Shown here: one piece after another, positions 1,431 through 51,949 of the stretch
Layout: each line of letters begins with the position of its first letter
Position numbering within the stretch: position 1 is the first letter of the stretch
Source: a bacterium
GTDB lineage: Bacteria; Patescibacteriota; Minisyncoccia; Phycocordibacterales; Phycocordibacteraceae
Assembly: GCA_037200965.1 (NCBI GenBank)
Contig: JBBCGK010000001.1
Span: forward strand, 704,001-768,000
DNA: 64,000 nt
Direction of reading: 5' to 3'
The notes under the pieces: generated by a model
Told to the model about the DNA's origin: nothing
The model's database searches: none
The model's input: only the letters and a program-made list of their open reading frames with translations
Made by a program: the position numbers and the translations under genes

Positions 1431-2648
1431 ATGGCTAGCCGGAAAACCAAAGTATTCATTTCCATGCCCTTCACTGGCAAGACGTTTGAGAATTTAAGCA
1501 GGGAGCGCGAGGATTTGCATGCGCTTGCGGCAACCTATGATTTGGAACTTCCGGAGCAGTTCATCGGGTATCAATTCGCAGAAGACTTTAAGACCAAGGA
1601 CTACGATCCGTCATTTGTTCTCGCCAAAGATAAAAAGTACATAAAAGAATCCGATATTGTTGTAGCCGATTTCTCGTCTCCTTCTATCGGCACCGATTGC
1701 GAAACTACTATCGCAAAGGAACTCTATGACAAAAAGATTATCGGCATCGTTCCGGACGTGAATAAGCGGAAGCACGCATGGCTACGCTTTTATTGCGACG
1801 ACTTCGTATCTTCGGTCGAGGAGGCGTTCGAGCTCATACGGGCGAAATACGCGAACCATAATCATCCGGAGCATGTCGACAAGCGCCAGTACGACTCTAT
1901 TGCCGTCGAGTACCAGCTTGTCGAAGCCACGCCTATCCAGAAGTACGTGTACGACCCGAACGCGCGGGAGCTTCTCGGGGAATACGGCACCGGCAAGAAA
2001 GTCGCCGTGTTCCATTGCGCGAGCGGGCATCGGGCGCGTATAGCCAAAGAAGCGGGCGCGAAGGAGGTTATCGGGATCGATACTTCCTTTAGGCAGATAA
2101 GTCTCGCTCGTGAGATAGAGCTTTCTAAGCCGCAGGGCATTGAATATCGGGTCCTGAATGCTTATTCGAAGGATTTCCCCGATGAATTTCCAAAGGAATA
2201 TAATGGAAGTCTTGACGTCGTACTCGGGTTTTTCCTCATAGATCACGCGCAGACGGAAACAGAGCTCCAAAAGCTTGCGGAAAACGTTTACTCGAGCCTT
2301 GCGCCCGGAGGAGTGTTTATAGCCATGCTCGACGACTCGGAGGCGCGTACCCCGACTGACCCGAAGTACGGTGTCGCGATAGAGCCTTTAGAAGGGAAGG
2401 GGGATGCGAGCCAGCGCCGCATAGTCATCTATCAGAACATGAAGGACGGCGAGGATCGGGCCGTACTCCATTTCTTCAATTTCGAATGGACACGAGCCAC
2501 GGTACAGAGGGTATTTTCCGAAGCCGGGTTCGCTGCCGAATTCAAGGACCCGTTCGTGGCACCGGAAGGGAAAGAGCGTCTGGGGGAGGACTTCTGGAGG
2601 AAATACGAGGAAGATCCGGACAACGTGCTGTTTATCTGCAGGAAATAA
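1431..2648 (+). CDS. two-domain protein: N-terminal DUF4062 / nucleoside 2-deoxyribosyltransferase-like (TIR/SLOG-fold) domain fused to a class I SAM-dependent methyltransferase
   Basis: The N-terminus KVFISMPFTGKTFENLSREREDL matches the DUF4062 signature (VFISSTFxDLxEER). A GTDCE stretch resembles the NDT catalytic Glu region. The C-terminal half carries a Rossmann MTase motif (KKVAVFHCASGHRARIAKEAGAKEVIGIDTS). Confidence 0.55.
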   Translation: MASRKTKVFISMPFTGKTFENLSREREDLHALAATYDLELPEQFIGYQFAEDFKTKDYDPSFVLAKDKKYIKESDIVVADFSSPSIGTDCETTIAKELYDKKIIGIVPDVNKRKHAWLRFYCDDFVSSVEEAFELIRAKYANHNHPEHVDKRQYDSIAVEYQLVEATPIQKYVYDPNARELLGEYGTGKKVAVFHCASGHRARIAKEAGAKEVIGIDTSFRQISLAREIELSKPQGIEYRVLNAYSKDFPDEFPKEYNGSLDVVLGFFLIDHAQTETELQKLAENVYSSLAPGGVFIAMLDDSEARTPTDPKYGVAIEPLEGKGDASQRRIVIYQNMKDGEDRAVLHFFNFEWTRATVQRVFSEAGFAAEFKDPFVAPEGKERLGEDFWRKYEEDPDNVLFICRK

Positions 2649-2684
2649 TTTCTTCGAGCAGGATTTGAAGTTCTTAAGACAGAT

Positions 2685-3191
2685 TTACTTCAAAATAAAT
2701 TCCTCCCGCAACAGCGCATAGCCGACAGCATCGACGTATTCTCCCGTCTCGCGGTTTTCCCATTCCTTCTTGTGTCGCGCTTCCTGTCGGAAGCCGAGGG
2801 ACTCGAATACTTTTCGCATAGCGGCGTTATCCTCCCTGGTCGTCGCGTATATCCTGCGGATTTTATCGTAGCGGCCGAAGATGTAGGCAATGCCTTCTTT
2901 AAGCAGCTTCGTTCCGACTCCTTTCCCGCGCGCGTCTTTGTCTACGCAGAGAGTAAACGAAGGCGCGTCGCTGCCGGAGTTCTTTATGTTATCGAAATGG
3001 ATGAATCCGAGCAGCTTGCTTTCGTCGTAGCATACGAGCGTCTGAGCCGTCTCGCTTGAGAAATAATTCTCATCCCGGATTGCAAGGCCCCGTTCGTCGA
3101 TTATCGGATCCAGAAAATACTCCCAGCGATTCGAAGTCAGGAGATGATGAATGGCAGGAAGATCTCCGGGTCTGAAAAGATGTATTTCCAT
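2685..3191 (-). CDS. GNAT family N-acetyltransferase
   Basis: Acetyl-CoA binding motif RGKGVGTKLLKEGIAYIF. Length 168 aa. Confidence 0.8.
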   Translation of the reverse strand: MEIHLFRPGDLPAIHHLLTSNRWEYFLDPIIDERGLAIRDENYFSSETAQTLVCYDESKLLGFIHFDNIKNSGSDAPSFTLCVDKDARGKGVGTKLLKEGIAYIFGRYDKIRRIYATTREDNAAMRKVFESLGFRQEARHKKEWENRETGEYVDAVGYALLREEFILK

Positions 3192-3364
3192 GGAATAAAT
3201 AGTACCACTTCCCGCTTCTAGAAAGCGCTACGCTTTTCTCCCTCGACGATCATTACACTTCTTGTCCATCGTGGACTCTTGGTGGGGAAGGCGTGAATAA
3301 AAACCAATCCCCCTCCTTAAGTGAGAGAGCTTTTCCTAATCTAAAGGCGAGATATACTAGACGC

Positions 3365-8028: not shown

Positions 8029-8153
8029 CCCGCCGGTAGGGGTGGAAGAGAAGTCCGGAATTTCTGAGAAGTTTCTGCAGAAAGTTAGAACCCCCAATCT
8101 GTTAAGACGCGCCAACACGAATGGTTACTTAACTCGGCCTTTCGTGAAATGAT

Positions 8154-8566
8154 GTGGAGGTGGGGAGGTTGAACTCCCGTCCGACCTGCGCTTGAGAGCG
8201 AGTCTACGGCGCGTAGTTCCGATTAGGGTTTAAGAGAGGATGCGAGGAAACGGAACGAAACCATTCCCCTCCGATCCCGTTATCTAAGCCGCGGGCCGGG
8301 AGAGCCGCGAACCGATCGCACAGAAGATTCCGCCCGCTGGCCCGGCTGTGCGCACCCGGGACCAGGGACGTCGCTTAGGCGAGGTGAGCCGAAGCTCGAA
8401 CCTTATGCGTAAGCGAACGCGAAGTTCCCTGCGGTAAAGTAAGGAGACTTCACGCCTACAACAGTTTTGTTTGCAGGTAGAGTTTCCCGCCAGATTAAAG
8501 TGATGGGCGGGAGTGCACTGCGCCGCACGTCTCTCAAGGTACAGGCCGTCAAAGCCGGTCACCCCC
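8154..8566 (-). ncRNA. ssrA: tmRNA (ssrA), one-piece
   Basis: The minus-strand 5' end GGGGGUGACCGGCUUUGACGG matches the tmRNA 5' consensus (GGGGCUGAUUCUGGAUUCGACGG). The 3' end GGACGGGAGUUCAACCUCCCCACCUCCA is a tRNA-Ala-like T-arm plus acceptor. There is an internal ORF ending ...AGNFAFAYA-UAA. The gene sits adjacent to smpB. Confidence 0.7.
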
Positions 8567-9918: not shown

Positions 9919-11868
9919 ATGCCGCTTCCGTTTCAAACGCCGGGCAGGAATAAGAAAAACAGGAAACAGAAAACGCCCGTGAAGCGCTCGTATTTCGGCC
10001 TGCCTCCCACCTCCTTCACCGGCAATCTCGTCACGACCGTTCTCATCTTCCTGCTTCTCACGAGTGCGTACTCGCTCTTCGTGGGCCTGAGTTCGAGTCC
10101 CGAGAGCGTATCGCTCTCGCAGGTCGCGAAAGACGTCGAAGCGGGTTCTATAACCGCGATCAAGGTCGCAGGCGACAGCCTGAAGCTCACGTATACCGAC
10201 GAAAGCGAGAAAGTCTCGACCAAGGACCCCGCCGCGGGCCTTCCGGAGACGCTCGCGACCTACGGCGTAACGCCCGAGCAGCTGCGGAGCGTTGCTATTA
10301 CCGTCACGGGACAAAGCGGCTGGCGCTTCTGGCTCCTCACGCTCCTGCCGCTTCTCCTCCCGGTCATCTTCCTCGGGTTCCTGTTCTGGTTCCTTTCACG
10401 GCAGGTGAAAGGCGCGGGCATGCAGGCCTTCACGTTCGGGCAGAGCAAGGCGCGCATGACGGACCCGGCCGACATGAGCCAGCGCGTCACGTTCGCGGAT
10501 GTCGCCGGGGCGAAGGAAGCGAAGGAGGAGCTTATGGAAATCGTGGACTTCCTTAAGAATCCGAAGAAGTTCCTCGACATCGGCGCGAGAATTCCTAAGG
10601 GCATTCTTCTCATGGGCGCGCCGGGTACCGGGAAGACTCTCCTCGCCCGTGCCGTCGCGGGCGAGGCGGGCGTACCGTTCTTCTCGATTTCCGGCTCCGA
10701 GTTCGTCGAGATGTTCGTCGGCGTGGGCGCGTCCCGCGTGCGCGACCTTTTCCAGATGGCGAAGCGCGCGGCGCCCGCGATCATTTTCGTCGACGAGATC
10801 GACGCGGTCGGGCGCGTCCGCGGCACCGGAGTCGGAGGCGGAAATGACGAGCGTGAGCAGACCCTGAACCAGATTCTCGTCGAGATGGACGGTTTTGAGC
10901 CGACGGAAAAGGTGATCGTTATGGCGGCAAGCAACCGCCCCGACGTGCTTGATCCCGCGCTTCTTCGCCCGGGCCGTTTCGACCGACGCGTCACCATCGA
11001 TCTTCCGGACCGCAAGGATCGCGAAGAGATACTTAAGATCCACGCACGCAAGAAGCCGTTCGGTCCTGACGTAACCCTTCCGGTCATCGCCGAGCGCACG
11101 CCGGGCTTCTCCGGCGCCGAGCTCTACAGCCTCATGAACGAGGCGGCCATCCTCGCGGCCCGCGAGAACCGTACCGAAATCACCCAGTACGACCTCATCC
11201 GCTCGATCGAGAAGGTGATGCTCGGTCCCGAGCGCAAGTCCCATATTTTGAGTAACAAAGAAAAGAAGCTTACGGCATACCATGAGGCCGGGCACGCGCT
11301 TGTCTCATCGGTCCTCGAGCACGCCGACCCGGTGCACAAGATTTCCATCATCAGCCGCGGGCGGGCGGCGGGCTATACGCTCAAGCTTCCGTTCGAGGAC
11401 AAGAAGATGTACTCGAAGAAGGCGTTCCTCGACGATATCGCCGCGACCCTTGGCGGCTACGTGGCGGAAGAGATGATCTATGACGACGTGACCACGGGAC
11501 CCTCGAACGATCTCCAGGTTATCACCGCGCTTGCGCGCGACATGGTGTCCCGCTACGGCATGTCCGATTCCATCGGGCCCGTCGCATTCGCGTCCGACCG
11601 CGACATGCAGGGAGACCGGTATTCGCAGGAAATCGCCGCGAAGATAGACGGCGAAGTGTCGCGCATCATCGAGGAAGGGAAAGAGCGCGCGAAGAAAGTA
11701 CTCACCGAACACCGGAAGGCGCTCGACGCCATAACGGATCGCCTGGTCGAAGTCGAGACTATCGAGCGCGAGGAGTTCGAGAAAATACTTATCGCGAGCG
11801 GCATCACGCCGAAGAAGAAGGACGAGGAAGGGGTCGTCATCGCTCCAGTCGCGCCGCGCGTGGACTAG
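9919..11868 (+). CDS. ftsH: ATP-dependent zinc metalloprotease FtsH
   Basis: N-terminal TM, AAA Walker [12 protein letters not shown], and Zn-binding HEAGHAL. The start was moved to the internal ATG 9919 to avoid overlap with the patatin gene. Confidence 0.95.
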
Positions 11869-12383: not shown

Positions 12384-12455
12384 CCACCCATAGCTCAATG
12401 GTAGAGCGATCGACTTATATTCGATTGGCTCCAGGTTCGAGTCCTGGTGGGTGGA
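12384..12455 (+). tRNA. tRNA, anticodon read as UAU (Ile2-type); no encoded CCA
   Basis: Cloverleaf: acceptor CCACCCA/TGGGTGG, D-arm GCTC-AATGGTA-GAGC, anticodon arm ATCGA-CTTATAT-TCGAT, T-arm CCAGG-TTCGAGT-CCTGG, discriminator A. Confidence 0.7.
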
Positions 12456-13280
12456 CTACCGAGGGAATATATCAACGAGTTCGCCCGAACTATAAAAGTC
12501 CGCGGCAAGACCGCCGAAGCTATACGAAACACCGAGAATATCGATGGCCGCGCCGCCTACCTGCGGATTCGCGTTCGGGGTCGAATGCGCGAAGCCGATG
12601 TTGTAAAGCGTCGAGACGACCGCGGGGTTTCCTTCGATAGGGAAGCCCGCCTTCCTCCACTGCGCTTCCACCTCCTTTATATAGAGTCCCGCATAGAGAT
12701 AGCTCCAATAGTGGTCGTGCTGGTCGGTCATGCGCGCGAAGCGTTCGCTTTCTACGTCGGTCGTCCGGAAGTCGAGCGCGTGCCCGAACTCAGGCCCCGG
12801 ATAGTACGGCGAGGCCGGATCCTTCAGATTATTCTCCACTTGGATCGCCGTGTCTTCTTTCATCCCCATCACGCCCCAGGAAAACTGTGTCTGAGAACCC
12901 AGGATCTTGAGCGGATAGAAGAATTGCTTATAAAACTCCCGTTCCGTGAAGAAAAGCCGCAGCTGTTCGGCGACCAAATTCGCGGCGATGAGCCGCGCGG
13001 GAACGCCCGAGTCGGCAGCCGCCCGGTCGAGCGCCGCGGTATCTTTCCGAAGCGCCGCCTCGAGCACCTGCCATTCTTCGGTCTTCTGCCAGGGCGTGCC
13101 ACGCGGATCGCTAGGCGCGAAGTCGGTCGATGTCGCGGAACCGATGAACGCTTCGCGCTGGAGGTCGACGATGCCGCTCGTGTTGGTGAGTCCGAACCGG
13201 ACCGCGAAGTATCCGACGACGAGGAAGAAGCCGATCGCGGCGAATATATAAATGACGATCGAGACGACTTTCTTAAGCAT
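12456..13280 (-). CDS. hypothetical membrane-anchored protein
   Basis: N-terminal TM helix (VVSIVIYIFAAIGFFLVVGYFAV) and balanced composition. The opposite-strand ORF 12447..13316 is R-rich and was judged spurious. Confidence 0.5.
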   Translation of the reverse strand: MLKKVVSIVIYIFAAIGFFLVVGYFAVRFGLTNTSGIVDLQREAFIGSATSTDFAPSDPRGTPWQKTEEWQVLEAALRKDTAALDRAAADSGVPARLIAANLVAEQLRLFFTEREFYKQFFYPLKILGSQTQFSWGVMGMKEDTAIQVENNLKDPASPYYPGPEFGHALDFRTTDVESERFARMTDQHDHYWSYLYAGLYIKEVEAQWRKAGFPIEGNPAVVSTLYNIGFAHSTPNANPQVGGAAIDILGVSYSFGGLAADFYSSGELVDIFPR

Positions 13281-21217: not shown

Positions 21218-21925
21218 CTACGCTGTCTTCCTGAAGGTTTGGTGAGGCCCTCCGTCCTCCACGCGGTATTCGTTCACCGCCTCGTGCGCAAGCCGCGTCG
21301 GTTCCGGGAGGCGGTGCTTTCGGACGCAGTTCCGTACGAGGTCGAGCGATTCCTCGAGCGTGATGAGGTGGCCGGGGGAGATGAACATCGGCTTCACCGC
21401 CCGCTTGGTGCGAAGCGCCGCGCCGATGATCTCGGCCGGGTCAGTCCGGTCGTGAAGGTATGAGACCGAGCCTGCTTCGGTGCCGGGCTCCTCATATACG
21501 CCCGTGAGGACGCTTTTGGCGCAGCCGACCGTGGGGAGGTTGAGCGCAAGGCCGAGGTGTGTCGCGATGCCGAGCCTTCTTGGGTGCGCGATGCCGACGC
21601 CGTCAACGAGTATCACGTCGGGCTTCGTATCCAGTTTCTCCCATGCCTTAAGGAGCATCGGAATCTCACGGAAGGAAAGAAGGCCCGGAATATAGGGGAA
21701 GGGAATCGTGTCCTTCACTACGCTGTGCGCGACCAGCCTTAGGCTCGGGTATTCGAGCACCACAAACCCGGCAAAGCCTTCCTTGGCGAAGCGGTTCATC
21801 GATACGTCGCAGCCGCCGATGAGCTTCACTTCTTTCGTTAAGGGTATAAGCCGCACTTCCTCGCGGAGCTTCTTCTGGAGCGTTATCGCGTCCTTGGGAG
21901 AGAGATTCCAGTCGTGGGCGATCAT
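21218..21925 (-). CDS. nfi: endonuclease V (deoxyinosine 3' endonuclease)
   Basis: GGCDVSM (catalytic Asp) and VDGVGIAHPRRLGIATHLG motifs. Length 235 aa. Confidence 0.85.
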   Translation of the reverse strand: MIAHDWNLSPKDAITLQKKLREEVRLIPLTKEVKLIGGCDVSMNRFAKEGFAGFVVLEYPSLRLVAHSVVKDTIPFPYIPGLLSFREIPMLLKAWEKLDTKPDVILVDGVGIAHPRRLGIATHLGLALNLPTVGCAKSVLTGVYEEPGTEAGSVSYLHDRTDPAEIIGAALRTKRAVKPMFISPGHLITLEESLDLVRNCVRKHRLPEPTRLAHEAVNEYRVEDGGPHQTFRKTA

Positions 21926-22011
21926 GAGGACACTATAGGCCGGGCAGATGGTATTTCAATGAGGGCGCTGTCTTCTGCCTTATAGGGGAATATGCTAAGG
22001 TTCTCCTCAAA

Positions 22012-22101
22012 GGAGACGTGGCTGAGTGGTCGAAAGTACCTCACTGCTAACGAGGCAGGGATTAACGTCCCTCGAGGGTTCGAATCCCTCCGTCTCCGCC
22101 A
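22012..22101 (+). tRNA. tRNA-Ser (anticodon GCU), CCA encoded
   Basis: GGAGACG acceptor, long variable arm GCAGGGATTAACGTCCCTC, anticodon loop CTGCTAA, T-loop GGTTCGAATCC, ...CGTCTCC-G-CCA. Confidence 0.85.
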
Positions 22102-22155
22102 GATGTCCAAATTCGAACCCAAGCAGAATAAGGGTATTTGGACTAAGATAATGAC

Positions 22156-23250
22156 ATGGCAACCAAAACGGCAAATTCAGGTCTTCATCAGGCCAAAACT
22201 GCCAAAAAGGACGAGTTTTATACCCAACTCGTTGATATTGAAAAAGAGCTGAAACACTACAAGGACCAATTTCGTGGCAAGGTGATTTTTCTGAATTGTG
22301 ACGATCCGTACGAAAGCAACTTCTTCAAGTATTTCGCTGGTAATTTCAATGCTCTCGGATTAAAGCAGCTTATTGCCACGAGCTACAAGCGATCGCCTAT
22401 TGCCAACACCCAATTAGGACTCTTTACCGATGGTGAGGTAGTGTCCGCAACTAAAGGCCGCCCAAAAGTGACTGCCAACAAATTCGTTATTAACGAAGTT
22501 GATGACATAAATGGTGACGGTTCTTTTGACTTGCGTGATATTGCGGAGCAGCTTAAAGCTAATAAAAATAACGAATGGACTCCATTAGACGGCGAAGGAG
22601 ATTTTCGGAGTCCGGAGAGCGTAGAACTGCTCAAGCAAGCTGATATTGTGGTGACAAACCCGCCCTTCTCGCTTTTCGGCGAGTATATTGATCAACTTGT
22701 TCAATACCAGAAAAAGTTTCTGATATTAGGAAATCAGAACGCTATTAAATATAAAAATGTCTTCAAGCTTATAAAGGAGAATAGGATGTGGCTAGGCTAT
22801 GACAATGGAGGAACGAAATGGTTCCAGGTGCCGGATGACTATGATATACAAACCGAATCAAGAATCAAAATAGAAAACGGTGTGAAATATTTTAGTATGG
22901 GCAGCATTGTGTGGTTTACAAATCTTGACACAACGAAGCGTCACATAGATTTCACAATGTACAAAAAATACAAACCCGAAGCATATTCAAAGTACGATAA
23001 TTACGACGCGATCGAGGTTTCTAGGGTGGTAGAAATACCAATGGACTATGGCGGCGAAATGGGAGTTCCGATTACCTTTTTAGATAAATATAATCCTGAC
23101 CAATTTGAGATTATTGATCTGCTAAACCGATACACCTTGTTTGACTCTCAGCAAACGAACGAAGATGTCAGACGAAGGCACTCCCACACTTGTAATATCA
23201 ATGGCAAGGCCGTATTTTCTCGAATTTTAATAAAGAACAAGCAAATTTGA
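22156..23250 (+). CDS. N6-adenine-type DNA methyltransferase (NPPF motif; EcoRI-methylase-like family)
   Basis: DEFYTQ...VIFLNCDDPYES followed by IVVTNPPFS (motif IV). AT-rich codon usage distinct from the host. Confidence 0.6.
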   Translation: MATKTANSGLHQAKTAKKDEFYTQLVDIEKELKHYKDQFRGKVIFLNCDDPYESNFFKYFAGNFNALGLKQLIATSYKRSPIANTQLGLFTDGEVVSATKGRPKVTANKFVINEVDDINGDGSFDLRDIAEQLKANKNNEWTPLDGEGDFRSPESVELLKQADIVVTNPPFSLFGEYIDQLVQYQKKFLILGNQNAIKYKNVFKLIKENRMWLGYDNGGTKWFQVPDDYDIQTESRIKIENGVKYFSMGSIVWFTNLDTTKRHIDFTMYKKYKPEAYSKYDNYDAIEVSRVVEIPMDYGGEMGVPITFLDKYNPDQFEIIDLLNRYTLFDSQQTNEDVRRRHSHTCNINGKAVFSRILIKNKQI

Positions 23251-23258
23251 AAATAATT

Positions 23259-24362
23259 ATGAAAATCGAGCTAAATAAGGTTTCGGTCCGTGAAGTGGTG
23301 GCAGAATATAAAGACAGCGCTGAGGAGGGTGTTGTGGCCTATGACGGTAAGCTCGATGTGCGCCCAAAGTATCAGCGAGAATTCGTATATAAAGACAAAC
23401 AACGCGATGCCGTTATTGATACTGTCAGAAAAGGGTTTCCACTTAACGTGATGTATTGGGTAAAGACCGACGAAGGAAATTTTGAAGTATTGGACGGGCA
23501 GCAGAGAACAATCAGTCTCGGTCAGTATGTAAACGGTGACTTCTCTGTTGATTTCAACGGTCGTCTGGCTATGTTCCACAACCTTACCAAAGAAGAGCAG
23601 GAGCAGATTCTGAACTATGAACTGATGATTTATTTCTGCGAAGGAAACGATAAGGAAAAGCTCGATTGGTTCAAGATCATCAATATTGGCGGTGAGCGTC
23701 TAACCGATCAGGAGTTACGCAATGCTGTCTATACCGGTCCGTGGCTTTCTGATGCCAAGCTCAAATTCAGTAAATCAAACTGTGCGGCATACCTCCTCGC
23801 AAACGATGGCGGTGCGCTGCTCAAGGGCTCTCCAATTCGGCAAGAATACTTGGAAACTGCGATCTCATGGATAAATAACGGGGATGTGGCGGGCTACATG
23901 GCAAAACACCAGCACGATGAGAATGCGGAAGAATTATGGAAGTACTTCCAAAGTGTTATTGAGTGGGTACGCAGGACCTTCCCAAACTACCGCAAAGAAA
24001 TGGCGAGCGTAAATTGGGGGGAACTATATAACGAATACAAAGACAAAAAACTCGACGACACAAAACTAGAAGAGGAAATCGCACGATTGATGCAAGACGA
24101 AGATGTAACGAAGAAATCCGGTATTTACCCTTATGTCCTTACGGGCGAGGAACATCACCTTTCAATCCGTGCGTTTAACGACAATATGAAGCGGGAGGCG
24201 TATGAGCGCCAGAAAGGTATCTGTGTGAAATGCGGGAAGAAGTTTGAGATCGAGGAAATGGAAGCCGACCACATTACACCGTGGCACCAGGGAGGAAAAA
24301 CAAAAGCCGAAAATTGCCAGATGCTATGTAAAGACGATAACCGGAGAAAATCTGGAAAATGA
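23259..24362 (+). CDS. DUF262 (ParB/GmrS-like, DGQQR) domain fused to C-terminal HNH endonuclease
   Basis: LDGQQRTISL (DUF262 signature). C-terminal CVKCGKKFEIEEMEADHITPWHQGGKTKAENCQMLCKDDN is a canonical HNH Cys4/His-Asn finger. The ORF-track start 23247 is a TTG; the ATG at 23259 lies 8 nt after the MTase stop. Confidence 0.7.
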   Translation: MKIELNKVSVREVVAEYKDSAEEGVVAYDGKLDVRPKYQREFVYKDKQRDAVIDTVRKGFPLNVMYWVKTDEGNFEVLDGQQRTISLGQYVNGDFSVDFNGRLAMFHNLTKEEQEQILNYELMIYFCEGNDKEKLDWFKIINIGGERLTDQELRNAVYTGPWLSDAKLKFSKSNCAAYLLANDGGALLKGSPIRQEYLETAISWINNGDVAGYMAKHQHDENAEELWKYFQSVIEWVRRTFPNYRKEMASVNWGELYNEYKDKKLDDTKLEEEIARLMQDEDVTKKSGIYPYVLTGEEHHLSIRAFNDNMKREAYERQKGICVKCGKKFEIEEMEADHITPWHQGGKTKAENCQMLCKDDNRRKSGK

Positions 24363-24997
24363 TAATGAAACAAGGAGATCTCCATATCTGGGTAAGAAAA
24401 TTACTCCAACAGCTTCGTACCCAAACCGATTCAAAAGAAGATTTATATACAAATATTCTTCTCTGGGCACACGATAAGCAAGAGTCTGGATTCTCATGGG
24501 AGGAAATGAGATCAAAGTTCTCACTGAATGCAGAACAAGAACATTGGGTTAGGAATATTTTCCTAACTACTTCAGATGGAGATAGGAAATTCTTTGAACA
24601 TTTACGGAACGATGATTCCGTATCACCGAATATTTATTACTACGCTTTAAATGAAAAAGGGATCACAGCGGCAATAAACTACAAGGGCTTGCGACATGCT
24701 GAAAAGAGCAGCACCCAAGCGTTATGGGTCGCAAGTATATCTATTTTTCTGGCAGCTATCGGTTTGTTTTTTACAGTTAAACAAACGAATTTGGCCGAGA
24801 CCCAAAGTATCTCGGAAAGGATAAATCAAGCAAGGAGTATACAATCAGCGCTTGAATTCTGTCAGCAGAATCCTGATTCTCAAGATTCTGGTCTCTATGA
24901 GATCTCGACTGGTAAATCTGCTTCATGTCCTCAAGTAGTGCGTAACTATTCCTCTACCTCCTCACTGTTGGATAGAATCAAAAGTCTGTTTAAGTAA
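24359..24997 (+). CDS. small protein with one central TM helix (unknown function), third gene of operon
   Basis: Its ATG overlaps the upstream stop (ATGA). The TM segment is ALWVASISIFLAAIGLFFTV. Confidence 0.5.
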   Translation: MIMKQGDLHIWVRKLLQQLRTQTDSKEDLYTNILLWAHDKQESGFSWEEMRSKFSLNAEQEHWVRNIFLTTSDGDRKFFEHLRNDDSVSPNIYYYALNEKGITAAINYKGLRHAEKSSTQALWVASISIFLAAIGLFFTVKQTNLAETQSISERINQARSIQSALEFCQQNPDSQDSGLYEISTGKSASCPQVVRNYSSTSSLLDRIKSLFK

Positions 24998-25405
24998 CTG
25001 GAGAATTCGGATTTATTCTATTGAATAATCGATCGCACTCTTTCTTTTAGACGATTTAGGCTGTGGCACCTCAAACCACTCCGGATGAGCTTTATATATA
25101 GCCCTCAATTCCTGTATACTTTTATCAAGTTTCCCGAAGGTAAGCCGTGTTTTTGGTTCGAATTTCGGGACACCGCCTCCGCATCTAACAGCTAGCACCA
25201 GGAACCTCGGGTCTAGCTGGTGTCTAAAAACATCCGGTACTTTCTCTTACTTGTTCAATATAAAAAGGACGGGCCGGAACTGTAGAAGTTCCGGCCCATG
25301 TACTGTGTTCCCGTATTGAGTTTTGTATATTGCTTGATCAGGTGGTCCTACCTGTTGCAGGCGTGAGGAGAGACTTACTCTCCTCACGTTTATAACCTGC
25401 AGGAC

Positions 25406-25807
25406 TTATAGGTCGTCCATACACCATGCGCACATCGACACATGGCTCAACGCTTCAGTCAGGCGTCCGACGGAAGGGGCATGAAACTCATAGGGAGTCA
25501 TATGCACGTCCTTCCATTGAAGTTTCGACGCTATTCCAAAACATTGGTAGCCGTCGCTTTCGCGGTCTGGGTCTTCGAGGTTCTGAACTTCAGAATCCCA
25601 ACTCTGGAAGCCGAGAGCTCCCGCGTCTTTATCTCTAAGATTGTCATCGACAACCTTAAAAATGCCCGCGGATAATTCTTCCACGAGTAGCCACGACCTT
25701 TGTGACAACCGTACGCCCGCAAGGGCGTTTATACGGCCTCCGAGAGAGGACGCATGGTCGGCATGGACGTATATCCGGTGCCGACGGACAAATAGCAATC
25801 TGAACAA
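25406..25807 (-). CDS. hypothetical protein (possible gene fragment)
   Basis: 133-aa ORF in a 52% GC patch between the island and IS30. No motif recognised. Confidence 0.3.
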   Translation of the reverse strand: MFRLLFVRRHRIYVHADHASSLGGRINALAGVRLSQRSWLLVEELSAGIFKVVDDNLRDKDAGALGFQSWDSEVQNLEDPDRESDGYQCFGIASKLQWKDVHMTPYEFHAPSVGRLTEALSHVSMCAWCMDDL

Positions 25808-25886
25808 CTGCTCAACTCCTCTGTTAGATTTTCAGGGAACACAGCGCCTAAAGTGTAACAGTGTACATAACATATGTCAATACCCG

Positions 25887-26876
25887 GGCTTGAATCCGCT
25901 CCTGAAACGCAACACCTGACGTAGGCTCGGTGGATGAGCCATCACCACCTTTCGCGCGGCGAGCGGGTCGCGCTTGCTGCGTTTCTCCGGACAGGAAAGA
26001 GCCGGGCCGAATGCGCCCGTCTTCTTGGCGTCCACCGCTCGACCATCTCGCGGGAACTGCGGCGCGGCGGTACCGAATACAAGGCGGTCGCCGCAGACAA
26101 GGAAGCCGCACGGCTGCGGAGAGAATCAAAACAACGAGCGCGGAAGATCGAGAACGACCATTCACTCGAACGAGAAATCGTTCGACTCCTGAAGAAGGGA
26201 CACTCTCCCGAACAGGTATCAGAAGAGGTGCGGTTCGTCTCGGACGACGCCATATACGATTGGATTGAACGTTCCCGAAAAGATCTCGCGGTACTCCTGC
26301 CCCAGCGCGGCAAGGTGCGCCGCCGGTACGGGAAGAATACGGGCGCGGTCCAAGGATGGACGAAATCCGTACGCAGTATCGCAGAGCGACCGAAGGCGGC
26401 GAACGACCGCTCCCGCATCGGCGACTGGGAAGGAGATACGGTCGCCGGACGGGATCGCGCCCGTCTGCTCGTGCATGTCGACCGGAAGAGCCGGTTCATC
26501 CTGGCCACGATCACGGCAAACGGGACTGCCGATACGATCCATGCCGCTGCGGGAGCCTCGTTCAAGGGACTTCCCGTTCGAACCATCACGTATGACCGCG
26601 GCAGCGAGTTCGCTCTCTGGCGCATGATTGAGCGCGATACCGGCGCAACCGTGTACTTCGCGAACGCGCATCATCCGTGGGAACGGGGCACGAGCGAGAA
26701 CTCGAACGGCCTCCTGCGGCGGTTCTTTCCGAAAGGAACGCCGATCGGCGAGAAGCTCCAGCGGGACGTTGACCGGGCCGTGCGGCTCATCAATCATCGG
26801 CCGAGGAAATGTCTCGGCTGGAAGACGCCCTGCCGCGTGTTTGGCCGCTGTTGCGTTTCAGGCTAGGATTCAAGCC
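25887..26876 (+). mobile_element. IS30-family insertion sequence
   Basis: Terminal inverted repeats: IRL GGCTTGAATCCGCTCCTGAAACGCAACA (25887-25914) and IRR, reverse-complemented, GGCTTGAATCCTAGCCTGAAACGCAACA (26849-26876). The single transposase ORF ends inside the IRR. Confidence 0.8.
25934..26866 (+). CDS. IS30-family DDE transposase
   Basis: N-terminal HTH (RAECARLLGVHRSTISRELRRG) and DDE core (DWEGDTV...TYDRGSEF...HPWERGTSEN). Confidence 0.85.
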   Translation: MSHHHLSRGERVALAAFLRTGKSRAECARLLGVHRSTISRELRRGGTEYKAVAADKEAARLRRESKQRARKIENDHSLEREIVRLLKKGHSPEQVSEEVRFVSDDAIYDWIERSRKDLAVLLPQRGKVRRRYGKNTGAVQGWTKSVRSIAERPKAANDRSRIGDWEGDTVAGRDRARLLVHVDRKSRFILATITANGTADTIHAAAGASFKGLPVRTITYDRGSEFALWRMIERDTGATVYFANAHHPWERGTSENSNGLLRRFFPKGTPIGEKLQRDVDRAVRLINHRPRKCLGWKTPCRVFGRCCVSG

Positions 26877-51590: not shown

Positions 51591-51882
51591 AGCGGGGTAG
51601 AGGAGTGGTACCTCGGGAGGCTTGAATTATTCGGGCGTGCGCGCGAGCAATTGCGCGTAAGATCATCTGCCAAATTCGGTGAAACCCTCCTGCGCGAAAG
51701 CACAGACGGCAACGCCGAGCCAAGCCCTAAGAGCAATCGAAGGGAAGGTGTAGAGACTAGACGGTAGACATCCCGCAGGGGATGAAGGCATAGTCCAGAC
51801 CACAAATCATTCGTGCGAGAGCGGCGAAAGCCGTAGTGGTAGGCATAACCTCCAGACTCGGGTTCGAATCCCGACCCCGCAA
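51591..51882 (+). tRNA. tRNA(CAU) (Met/fMet/Ile2-type) interrupted by a ~221-nt group I intron in the anticodon loop
   Basis: 5' exon AGCGGGG-TA-GAGG-AGTGGTA-CCTC-G-GGAGG-CT (51591-51622). 3' exon CATAA-CCTCC-AGAC-TCGGG-TTCGAAT-CCCGA-CCCCGCA-A (51844-51882). The exons join to a normal cloverleaf with anticodon loop CUCAUAA. Confidence 0.65.
51623..51843 (+). ncRNA. group I intron (self-splicing ribozyme) within tRNA(CAU)
   Basis: The 5' exon ends in U and the intron ends in G. Core elements: P-like CAATTGCGCGTAAG; R-like GTGTAGAGACTAGAC (consensus GUUCAGAGACUA); S-like AAGGCATAGTCC (consensus AAGAUAUAGUCC). The P7 pairing is GACUA/UAGUC. Confidence 0.6.
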
Positions 51883-51949
51883 CAAGCTTGTGATAGTGGA
51901 ACCCAGACCGGTGCGCCTGCAAAAGCAGTTCAGTATCGGTCCGGATCAA

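Follow-up and report, generated by a model that had tools for sequence, protein, structure and literature searches.

Do the three tightly spaced genes beside a tRNA-Ser gene in this bacterial genome form a defense system of a new kind, or do they belong to one that is already recognized? The genes lie in the 64,000-nucleotide stretch of contig JBBCGK010000001.1 that was analyzed here (the window), and an earlier sequence-only reading had described them as a candidate novel three-gene defense operon made up of a DNA methyltransferase (MTase), a nuclease with a DUF262 and an HNH domain, and a small membrane protein. The block is very probably an acquired two-gene restriction-modification (R-M) module, in which an EcoRI-family MTase (gene 1, or M) is paired with a DUF262-HNH nuclease (gene 2, or R), and the third gene appears to be an unrelated passenger. 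Instead of a novel operon, the locus thus holds a database-recognized R-M pair with a passenger behind it.

All three genes are on the forward strand. Gene 1 (22156-23250, 364 amino acids) begins 54 nucleotides after the tRNA gene, and gene 2 (23259-24362, 367 amino acids) follows after a gap of 8 nucleotides. Gene 3 (24359-24997) encodes 212 amino acids if it starts at the ATG at 24359, which shares bases with the TGA stop codon of gene 2 (an ATGA overlap), or 210 amino acids if it starts at the ATG at 24365, 2 bases past that stop. The gene coordinates, spacings and overlap given by the sequence-only reading were borne out by the list of open reading frames (ORFs), and the NCBI record and the homologues favor the start at 24365. 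The genes occupy a block of low guanine-cytosine (GC) content (22102-25260 in the composition profile, the right border being approximate). The GC content is 39-47% across 22.0-25.2 kb, whereas the sequences directly flanking the block have 60-65% and the remainder of the window ~56-60%, so the earlier description of an AT-rich block in a host of ~60% GC held up. By gene, the GC fraction is 0.41 for M, 0.46 for R and 0.39 for gene 3, the host values being 0.56-0.60. The block is foreign DNA that was horizontally acquired beside a tRNA gene.

Gene 1 matched the Pfam family EcoRI_methylase (PF13651) with an E value of 3.8e-137 over profile positions 2-345 of 345, and the PADLOC MTase_II profile PDLC03297 with an E value of 1.8e-122 (residues 1-363 against profile positions 1-329 of 332). 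Its identity to the MTase encoded beside R.EcoRI on an E. coli plasmid is ~46% by tblastn and 52% by alignment. The motifs NCDDP and DIVVTNPPFSLF, the second of which is the NPPF motif, are invariant among the homologues of gene 1. Because these catalytic motifs are kept, gene 1 can be counted as a true relative of M.EcoRI and, by homology, is an N6-adenine MTase, which agrees with the earlier assignment.

Gene 2 has two recognizable domains. The N-terminal part matched Pfam GmrSD_N (DUF262, PF03235; 2e-18, residues 34-158), a ParB/Srx-like domain that carries the DGQQR motif, and the C-terminal part matched the HNH zinc-finger family (PF01844; 2.4e-13, residues 322-365), while Pfam gave no match to DUF1524 (PF07510) in this protein. 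The domain composition that had been read from the translation, DUF262 with a canonical HNH finger and no DUF1524, was therefore correct. Residues D79-G-Q-Q-R83, D337-H338, N352, N361 and the four cysteines C322, C325, C353 and C357 (a DH..N..N arrangement with four Cys) are invariant in the homologues of gene 2. The HNH part matched PDB entry 4h9d, and a profile search of PDB sequences with gene 2 returned HNH domains only. An AlphaFold2 (AF2) model of gene 2, built on a shallow alignment of 79-90% identical sequences, had a predicted local distance difference test (pLDDT) score of 55, with values <50 over residues 1-220, and was not used.

The whole length of gene 2 was covered by the PADLOC REase_II profile PDLC03418 (1.3e-146, residues 1-367 against profile positions 1-372 of 372). 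The window R scored 486 bits on this profile, and its relatives, including those from other phyla, scored 453-474 bits; since all relatives checked score alike (453-486 bits), the profile describes a family with many members, of which the window R is a core member. PDLC03297 and PDLC03418 derive from REBASE-based R-M profiles. With an MTase_II gene and an adjacent REase_II gene 8 nucleotides downstream, the locus is a Type II R-M system in the profile sense, PADLOC evidence here being profile matches of single proteins plus adjacency. The sequence-only reading had found that the layout matched none of the canonical ones of type I-IV R-M, BREX, DISARM, Ssp or Dnd, and the novelty that it drew from this was overturned by the two full-length matches and by the similarity to BanLI described below.

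Other PADLOC matches of gene 2 were partial. The DUF262 domain (residues ~28-162) matched NsnA of Menshen (1.1e-27) and PD-T4-2_A (2e-12), and the likeness to the Menshen and PD-T4-2 A proteins is limited to this domain, the partner genes (NsnB and NsnC for Menshen) being absent. Menshen, PD-T4-2 and Septu (PtuB) were each set aside as identities for gene 2, as every one of them was a one-domain partial match with no partner genes. There were no further PADLOC matches among the neighboring proteins.

The association of M and R was scored in 80 genomic loci (L025-L104) that were picked by similarity to gene 2. In 75 of these 80 loci, R is preceded on the same strand by a gene for an EcoRI-family MTase, and in four of the five others the contig ends <470 nucleotides upstream of R. 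The gap between M and R is no larger than 60 nucleotides in 46 of the 75 loci. The R family is large, with >8000 candidate clusters at 90% identity and 519 clusters at 50% identity with E <=1e-30, mostly of 360-420 amino acids. The M-R pair was found on plasmids of Macrococcoides, Mammaliicoccus, Aeromonas, Variovorax, Gordonia, Sulfitobacter and lactobacilli, on Bifidobacterium chromosomes and plasmids, in Patescibacteria and other phyla, and in phage records; small plasmids carry it as their only cargo. The window R is 60-86% identical to a branch of Patescibacteria and plasmid sequences, and the bifidobacterial branch is more distant. At the family level, one MTase with one DUF262-HNH nuclease is therefore the standard, widely transferred layout, and the window adds another example of this common mobile R-M module, here from a Patescibacteria-like genome.

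In some of the loci an additional gene precedes the pair. An XRE-type helix-turn-helix (HTH) gene is located just upstream of M in 11 of 62 loci by a strict ORF test and in ~20 of 75 by tblastn, a position that resembles that of the C proteins of Type II systems. Based on these comparisons, what is conserved is the M-R pair, joined in some loci by a C-protein-like HTH gene, and gene 3 is a variable addition.

A number of side observations concern the junction between M and R. In 19 of the 75 loci (L036, L037, L038, L042, L046-L048, L051-L053, L055, L058, L059, L065, L068, L070, L073, L081 and L089), 0.5-4.6 kb of cargo lies between the two genes. Among the encoded proteins, identified by eye from their N-termini, are RhuM/Fic-like, T5orf172/GIY-YIG-like and DUF2130-like ones, an AAA-type ATPase of 490 amino acids and small transmembrane proteins; L068 also has a second MTase of the EcoRI family in this position. 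It seems that the junction of M with R is a hotspot for insertions. Two proteins, P0330 (688 amino acids) and P0457 (515 amino acids), join EcoRI_methylase to GmrSD_N, with the HNH domain also present in P0330; these may be natural M-R fusions, or they may be artefacts of gene calling or frameshifts.

The same loci bear directly on gene 3. A homologue of gene 3 is located downstream of R in only one of the 80 R-M loci (L065), where it is truncated and lies behind an intervening gene. When the first ORF downstream of R was clustered for 70 loci, 59 unrelated clusters resulted, of which the largest has three members; examples are a KAP NTPase, an SMC-like ATPase and recombinases. Gene 3 itself had no match in Pfam, NCBIfam, PADLOC or PHROGs, and its homologues number ~54, all from Patescibacteria, against the >8000 candidates for R. 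One homologue follows a different R-M system directly, with a 1-nucleotide gap behind a Tsp45I-type REase and an N6_N4 MTase (L015), and others are found among housekeeping genes with no R-M genes nearby (L019-L024). Two further candidate sites lacking R-M genes, L016 and L018, were discarded because they are only fragments of L015. No neighbors are common to the gene 3 homologues, and the homologues always have 35-40% GC, even where the flanking DNA has 51-59%. Because gene 3 is rare after R, occurs in varied contexts with no shared neighbors and keeps a constant low GC content, it is best described from these comparisons as a separately mobile passenger of Patescibacteria that stands outside the R-M system, even though it is probably co-transcribed with M and R.

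If the locus were instead a novel three-gene defense system, with the membrane protein as an obligate third part such as a sensor or an abortive-infection effector, gene 3 should accompany the pair, and this explanation is very improbable. It can draw on the way gene 3 overlaps or abuts the R stop and shares the low GC content, on the L015 homologue directly behind another R-M system and the L065 homologue near the same R-M family, and on the small transmembrane proteins in the M-R cargo elsewhere. The single occurrence in 80 loci, the scatter of downstream ORFs, the small number of gene 3 members relative to R, the homologues far from any R-M genes and the small plasmids that carry the M-R pair alone speak against it, so that synteny already largely refutes it. 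The sequence-only reading had itself named a match to a described system and a lack of co-conservation of the trio as grounds for giving up its proposal, and both were found.

A structural model gives some indication of what the passenger may be. In the AF2 model of gene 3, which was built on 48 sequences and had a pLDDT of 86.6, a winged-helix-like domain at the N-terminus is followed by a single, very long helix that includes the transmembrane segment; the C-terminal part is short and has two conserved cysteines. Foldseek searches with this model gave consistent but weak matches to MarR-type proteins (ZitR, MepR, MexR and PefR), with a best E value of 8.4e-4 and template modeling (TM) scores of ~0.35-0.5. 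The model suggests that gene 3 probably encodes a membrane-tethered winged-helix protein with a putative DNA-binding role. The predicted architecture is analogous to that of membrane-tethered regulators of the ToxR/CadC type, which likewise have an N-terminal winged helix, one transmembrane helix and a short C-terminal domain with two conserved cysteines. Unlike in ToxR and CadC, the predicted winged helix of gene 3 is of the MarR type and not of the OmpR type, and it comes with no sequence-family match.

The closest described system with experimental data is BanLI of Bifidobacterium animalis subsp. lactis. The BanLI locus consists of an integrase gene followed by the genes for M.BanLI (41.7 kDa) and R.BanLI (43.5 kDa), and it has 50% GC in a genome of 60% GC; its authors aligned M.BanLI to M.EcoRI (PMC3990576). 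Cloned M.BanLI modifies only one strand of its asymmetric target, RTC(6mA)GG, the cloned R-M system lowered the plating of P1vir ~10-fold, and pre-methylation raised transformation 1.8-fold (PMC3990576). According to a 2026 paper, the REBASE Type II REase of BanLI specificity corresponds to a gene annotated as a DUF262 domain-containing protein, under the REBASE entries Ban8145ORF124P / M.Ban504ORFAP (PMC13091528).

The window pair resembles BanLI in several respects. In both, an M.EcoRI-like N6-adenine MTase is followed by a DUF262-annotated R, the proteins are of similar size to the 364 and 367 amino acids in the window, the GC content is below that of the host genome, the island looks mobile, and the system is filed as Type II. 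Gene 1 belongs to the M.EcoRI family and has the CM I and CM II/NPPF motifs of the BanLI MTase type, and gene 2 is a DUF262 gene directly downstream, in the place of the R gene of ~43 kDa. The differences are that BanLI has an adjacent integrase, which the window lacks, and that its target is known (RTCAGG, one strand). Homologues of the window proteins in Bifidobacterium are 39-41% identical for R and ~43% for M. The R homologues in B. dentium and B. choerinum matched the same PADLOC profile as gene 2; the B. dentium pair has an R of 386 amino acids that is 39% identical to gene 2. A homology search seeded with the B. choerinum MTase recovered B. dentium but not B. animalis. Membership of the window pair in a BanLI-like family is well supported by annotation, protein sizes, gene order and the Bifidobacterium homologues.

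In the B. choerinum plasmid pBC (L130), R is split (10670-10939 and 2371-3195) by an insertion with the chloramphenicol exporter gene cmx, and the adjacent EcoRI-family MTase gene is intact, so that the insertion leaves an orphan methylase.

In terms of the MTase, EcoRI is also a close comparison, as its M is a full-length homologue of gene 1 (~46-52% identity) in the same Pfam family and with the same PADLOC MTase_II profile. The nucleases are unrelated: R.EcoRI, a PD-(D/E)XK enzyme, matches PDLC03551. The gene order also differs, being R then M in EcoRI and M then R in the window. In the architecture of the nuclease, the likeness is to GmrSD, BrxU and SspE, which share an N-terminal DUF262 domain with DGQQR and a C-terminal His-Me-finger nuclease. 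Their C-terminal domain is DUF1524, whereas gene 2 is a shorter protein with the classical zinc-binding HNH domain (PF01844). The common DUF262 and His-Me-finger architecture makes control of the gene 2 nuclease by nucleoside triphosphates (NTPs) plausible, and by analogy with these systems the DUF262 domain would bind or hydrolyze an NTP to control the nuclease.

The relative conservation of the two genes was compared in 71 M-R pairs from L025-L104 and the window, a set that was chosen by R similarity and is biased to that extent. The mean pairwise identity was 78% for R and 63% for M, R was higher in 98.5% of the pairs, and r was 0.26; in some pairs R is 93% identical and M ~70%. Among the distant plasmid copies, R is mostly but not always above M: the Macrococcoides and Mammaliicoccus copies have 62-63% identity for R and 42% for M, and Lactiplantibacillus pentosus is the exception, with 44% for R and 52% for M. 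The pairs with R at 93% and M at ~70% suggest faster M evolution or M swapping. For Type II systems, a nuclease more conserved than its own MTase is unusual.

These data bear on the question of which DNA the nuclease attacks. Since gene 2 invariably comes with an MTase of its own, it is presumably aimed at unmodified DNA, unlike GmrSD and BrxU. That R is found with M almost without exception, together with the C-protein-like genes, the carriage by small plasmids and the BanLI data, argues that R would attack unmethylated rather than methylated DNA, and the modification-restriction logic that the sequence-only reading proposed is most likely, given the M-R pairing. Gene 2 could alternatively be a modification-dependent Type IV nuclease of the GmrSD/BrxU kind, with an independent MTase that acts as an orphan, serves anti-restriction or places a mark that is not the target of the nuclease. 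This is unlikely, even though DUF262 nucleases with defined substrates (GmrSD and BrxU) cut modified DNA, the N-terminus of gene 2 is similar to GmrSD_N and to the DUF262 proteins of Menshen and PD-T4-2, and the higher conservation of R is what would be seen for a nuclease that does not read the sequence of the MTase. The adjacency of M then R across phyla, the C-like regulators, the plasmids with the pair as only cargo and the rare fusions are typical of cognate R-M systems. Pre-methylation by the cognate M helps transformation and the R-M clone restricts phage in the case of BanLI, the C-terminus of gene 2 is a classical HNH domain and not DUF1524, and the PADLOC Type IV profile (mREase_IV) matched the HNH part of gene 2 only, with an E value of 0.0045.

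If the preferred reading, an R-M module aimed at unmodified DNA, is correct, then a ~3-kb foreign low-GC piece beside tRNA-Ser would supply the host with a two-gene module of a widespread family. The gene 1 product would place N6-methyl groups on adenines within a short, specific target in the host genome, as M.EcoRI does in GAATTC and M.BanLI does on one strand of RTCAGG. The gene 2 product would cut DNA that lacks this methyl mark, with the HNH domain as the predicted catalytic center and the DUF262 domain as a putative NTP-binding switch that controls the nuclease, as in GmrSD, BrxU and SspE. Gene 3 would have landed just downstream of R and would have no role in restriction.

The authors of the BanLI study proposed the loss of a second methylase (PMC3990576). 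Our comparison argues against this idea, as the layout with a single MTase is found throughout the family, and by this evidence the BanLI layout is the family standard and not a degenerate Type IIS system. The higher conservation of R together with the universal single-MTase layout leaves room for an NTP-gated mechanism similar to that of Type III systems. It is possible, though doubtful at this stage, that the M.EcoRI-like and DUF262-HNH family forms a distinct NTP-gated R-M class and not a classical Type IIP one, with a Type III-like logic in which M supplies the specificity. In such a class, the single MTase would mark one strand of an asymmetric site, as M.BanLI does, and the nuclease itself would be largely or wholly without sequence specificity. 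The ParB-like switch could then serve for clamp-like loading, sliding or dimerization, by which unmodified foreign DNA may be told from freshly replicated self DNA. The single-MTase norm in >70 loci, the conservation of R over M and the M-R fusions are consistent with this proposal and do not demonstrate it. If one-strand methylation is true, how a ParB-like NTP-binding nuclease spares methylated self DNA becomes a real question. A literature search found no biochemical study of a member of the DUF262-HNH R-M family.

Several points weigh against a complete, active two-gene module with an unrelated passenger. Gene 3 begins within a few bases of the R stop, and its relatives adjoin R-M genes in three of six distinct contexts, which together may reflect a loose link of gene 3 with such islands. 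GmrSD and BrxU attack modified DNA and SspE needs the phosphorothioate marks of the host, so the opposite polarity is drawn here from genomic context. The tie to BanLI comes from annotation, size, order and the Bifidobacterium homologues, and BanLI itself restricted only weakly when it was measured. Upstream of gene 1 there is no recognizable sigma-70-like promoter, and the window has no C-protein gene, with only 54 nucleotides between the tRNA gene and M. Markov-corrected palindrome counts in 1.2 Mb of DNA around the 80 loci plus the window host DNA showed only generic avoidance (GGCC, ACGT and GATC), and among these palindromes no decisive recognition site emerged (observed/expected of 0.86 for GAATTC and 0.90 for AAATTT).

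Some of these points would also fit a module that is mainly a selfish addiction cassette or a decaying remnant, perhaps poorly expressed or inactive. The missing C-protein gene and promoter, the lack of an integrase, the rearranged surroundings (a tRNA gene inverted relative to its relatives and an IS30 element nearby), the weak BanLI restriction and the R gene broken by a resistance-gene insertion on the Bifidobacterium plasmid are in line with it. The ORFs of M and R are nevertheless intact and of full length with all family-invariant residues, and the C gene is missing from most related loci as well. Selfishness and defense are, moreover, not mutually exclusive. A cassette or remnant of this sort therefore seems improbable, and a working two-gene R-M module remains the preferred reading.

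The borders of the block were analyzed in relation to the proposal that it is an island inserted at tRNA-Ser and capped by an IS30 element. The left border is the host gene for tRNA-Ser(GCU) (22012-22101, forward strand; ARAGORN, and Rfam tRNA with 55.8 bits), and DNA of foreign composition directly abuts its 3′ end, so this part of the proposal stands. The other signs of a tRNA island, an integrase and a flanking direct repeat, were not found: there is no integrase ORF or family match around the block, and a local alignment of the 3′ half of the tRNA with the island end, as a search for an attachment (att) repeat, scored at chance (best forward-strand score 18, shuffle mean 17). By eye, 25155-25185 loosely resembles a tRNA T-arm and acceptor 3′ end, and the resemblance is not significant. 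An imperfect inverted pair (19/21) around TTCGAA is located exactly at the two low-GC borders (22103-22122 and 25150-25170); it was rejected as an att site because its score is no better than that of chance matches elsewhere in the window.

At the right end, the GC content recovers to ~50% beyond ~25200. A 61-amino-acid ORF on the reverse strand at the end of the low-GC block (25013-25198, from the ORF list) had no family match in any library scanned and may not be a gene. Between the island and the IS30 element, a reverse-strand ORF of 133 amino acids (25406-25807) is probably a real host gene, again with no family match, and is followed on its 3′ side by a hairpin (25345-25405) and then a strong terminator (25299-25269). 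The IS30-family insertion sequence (25887-26876, forward strand) matched NCBIfam transpos_IS30 (NF033563) at 8.2e-66. It has 28-nucleotide terminal inverted repeats (25887-25914 and 26849-26876, 89% complementary) and a transposase gene (25934-26866), and the element as a whole has a host-like GC fraction of 0.62. The element starts ~0.6 kb past the end of the low-GC block. Because the GC content has recovered by ~25200 and the 0.6-kb spacer holds its own ORF and terminator, the insertion sequence is a separate neighbor and does not cap the island.

The surroundings of the tRNA gene were compared in related genomes. An orthologue of tRNA-Ser(GCU) adjoins the endonuclease V (EndoV) gene in five of them (L108, L117, L118, L121 and L124), with a mean column identity of 91%. 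In these five relatives the tRNA gene is co-directional with EndoV and its 3′ end faces EndoV, while in the window (21218-22101) the two are divergent. The tRNA gene, perhaps together with the island, has been inverted in the lineage of the window. The relatives recovered through EndoV (64-76% identity) keep the tRNA-Ser/EndoV adjacency and share nothing to its right, so none of them shows an empty site.

Three other features of the window are unrelated to the R-M pair. A tRNA-Ile gene with the anticodon UAU is located at 12384-12456 on the forward strand and is also present in the relative L108, and a transfer-messenger RNA (tmRNA) gene is located at 8152-8566 on the reverse strand (Rfam, 95 bits), with the predicted tag GPAGGIFCAIGSRLSRPAA. 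A group I intron (Rfam RF00028, 58.8 bits, E 2.4e-12) was found at 51592-51889 on the forward strand, with the intron itself at 51614-51815. Its flanks resemble two tRNA halves, and ARAGORN made no tRNA call there. If splicing follows U33 and the G before CATAA, the anticodon loop would read CU-CAU-AA, and the locus would encode a tRNA(CAU) whose gene is interrupted by an intron of ~220 nucleotides.

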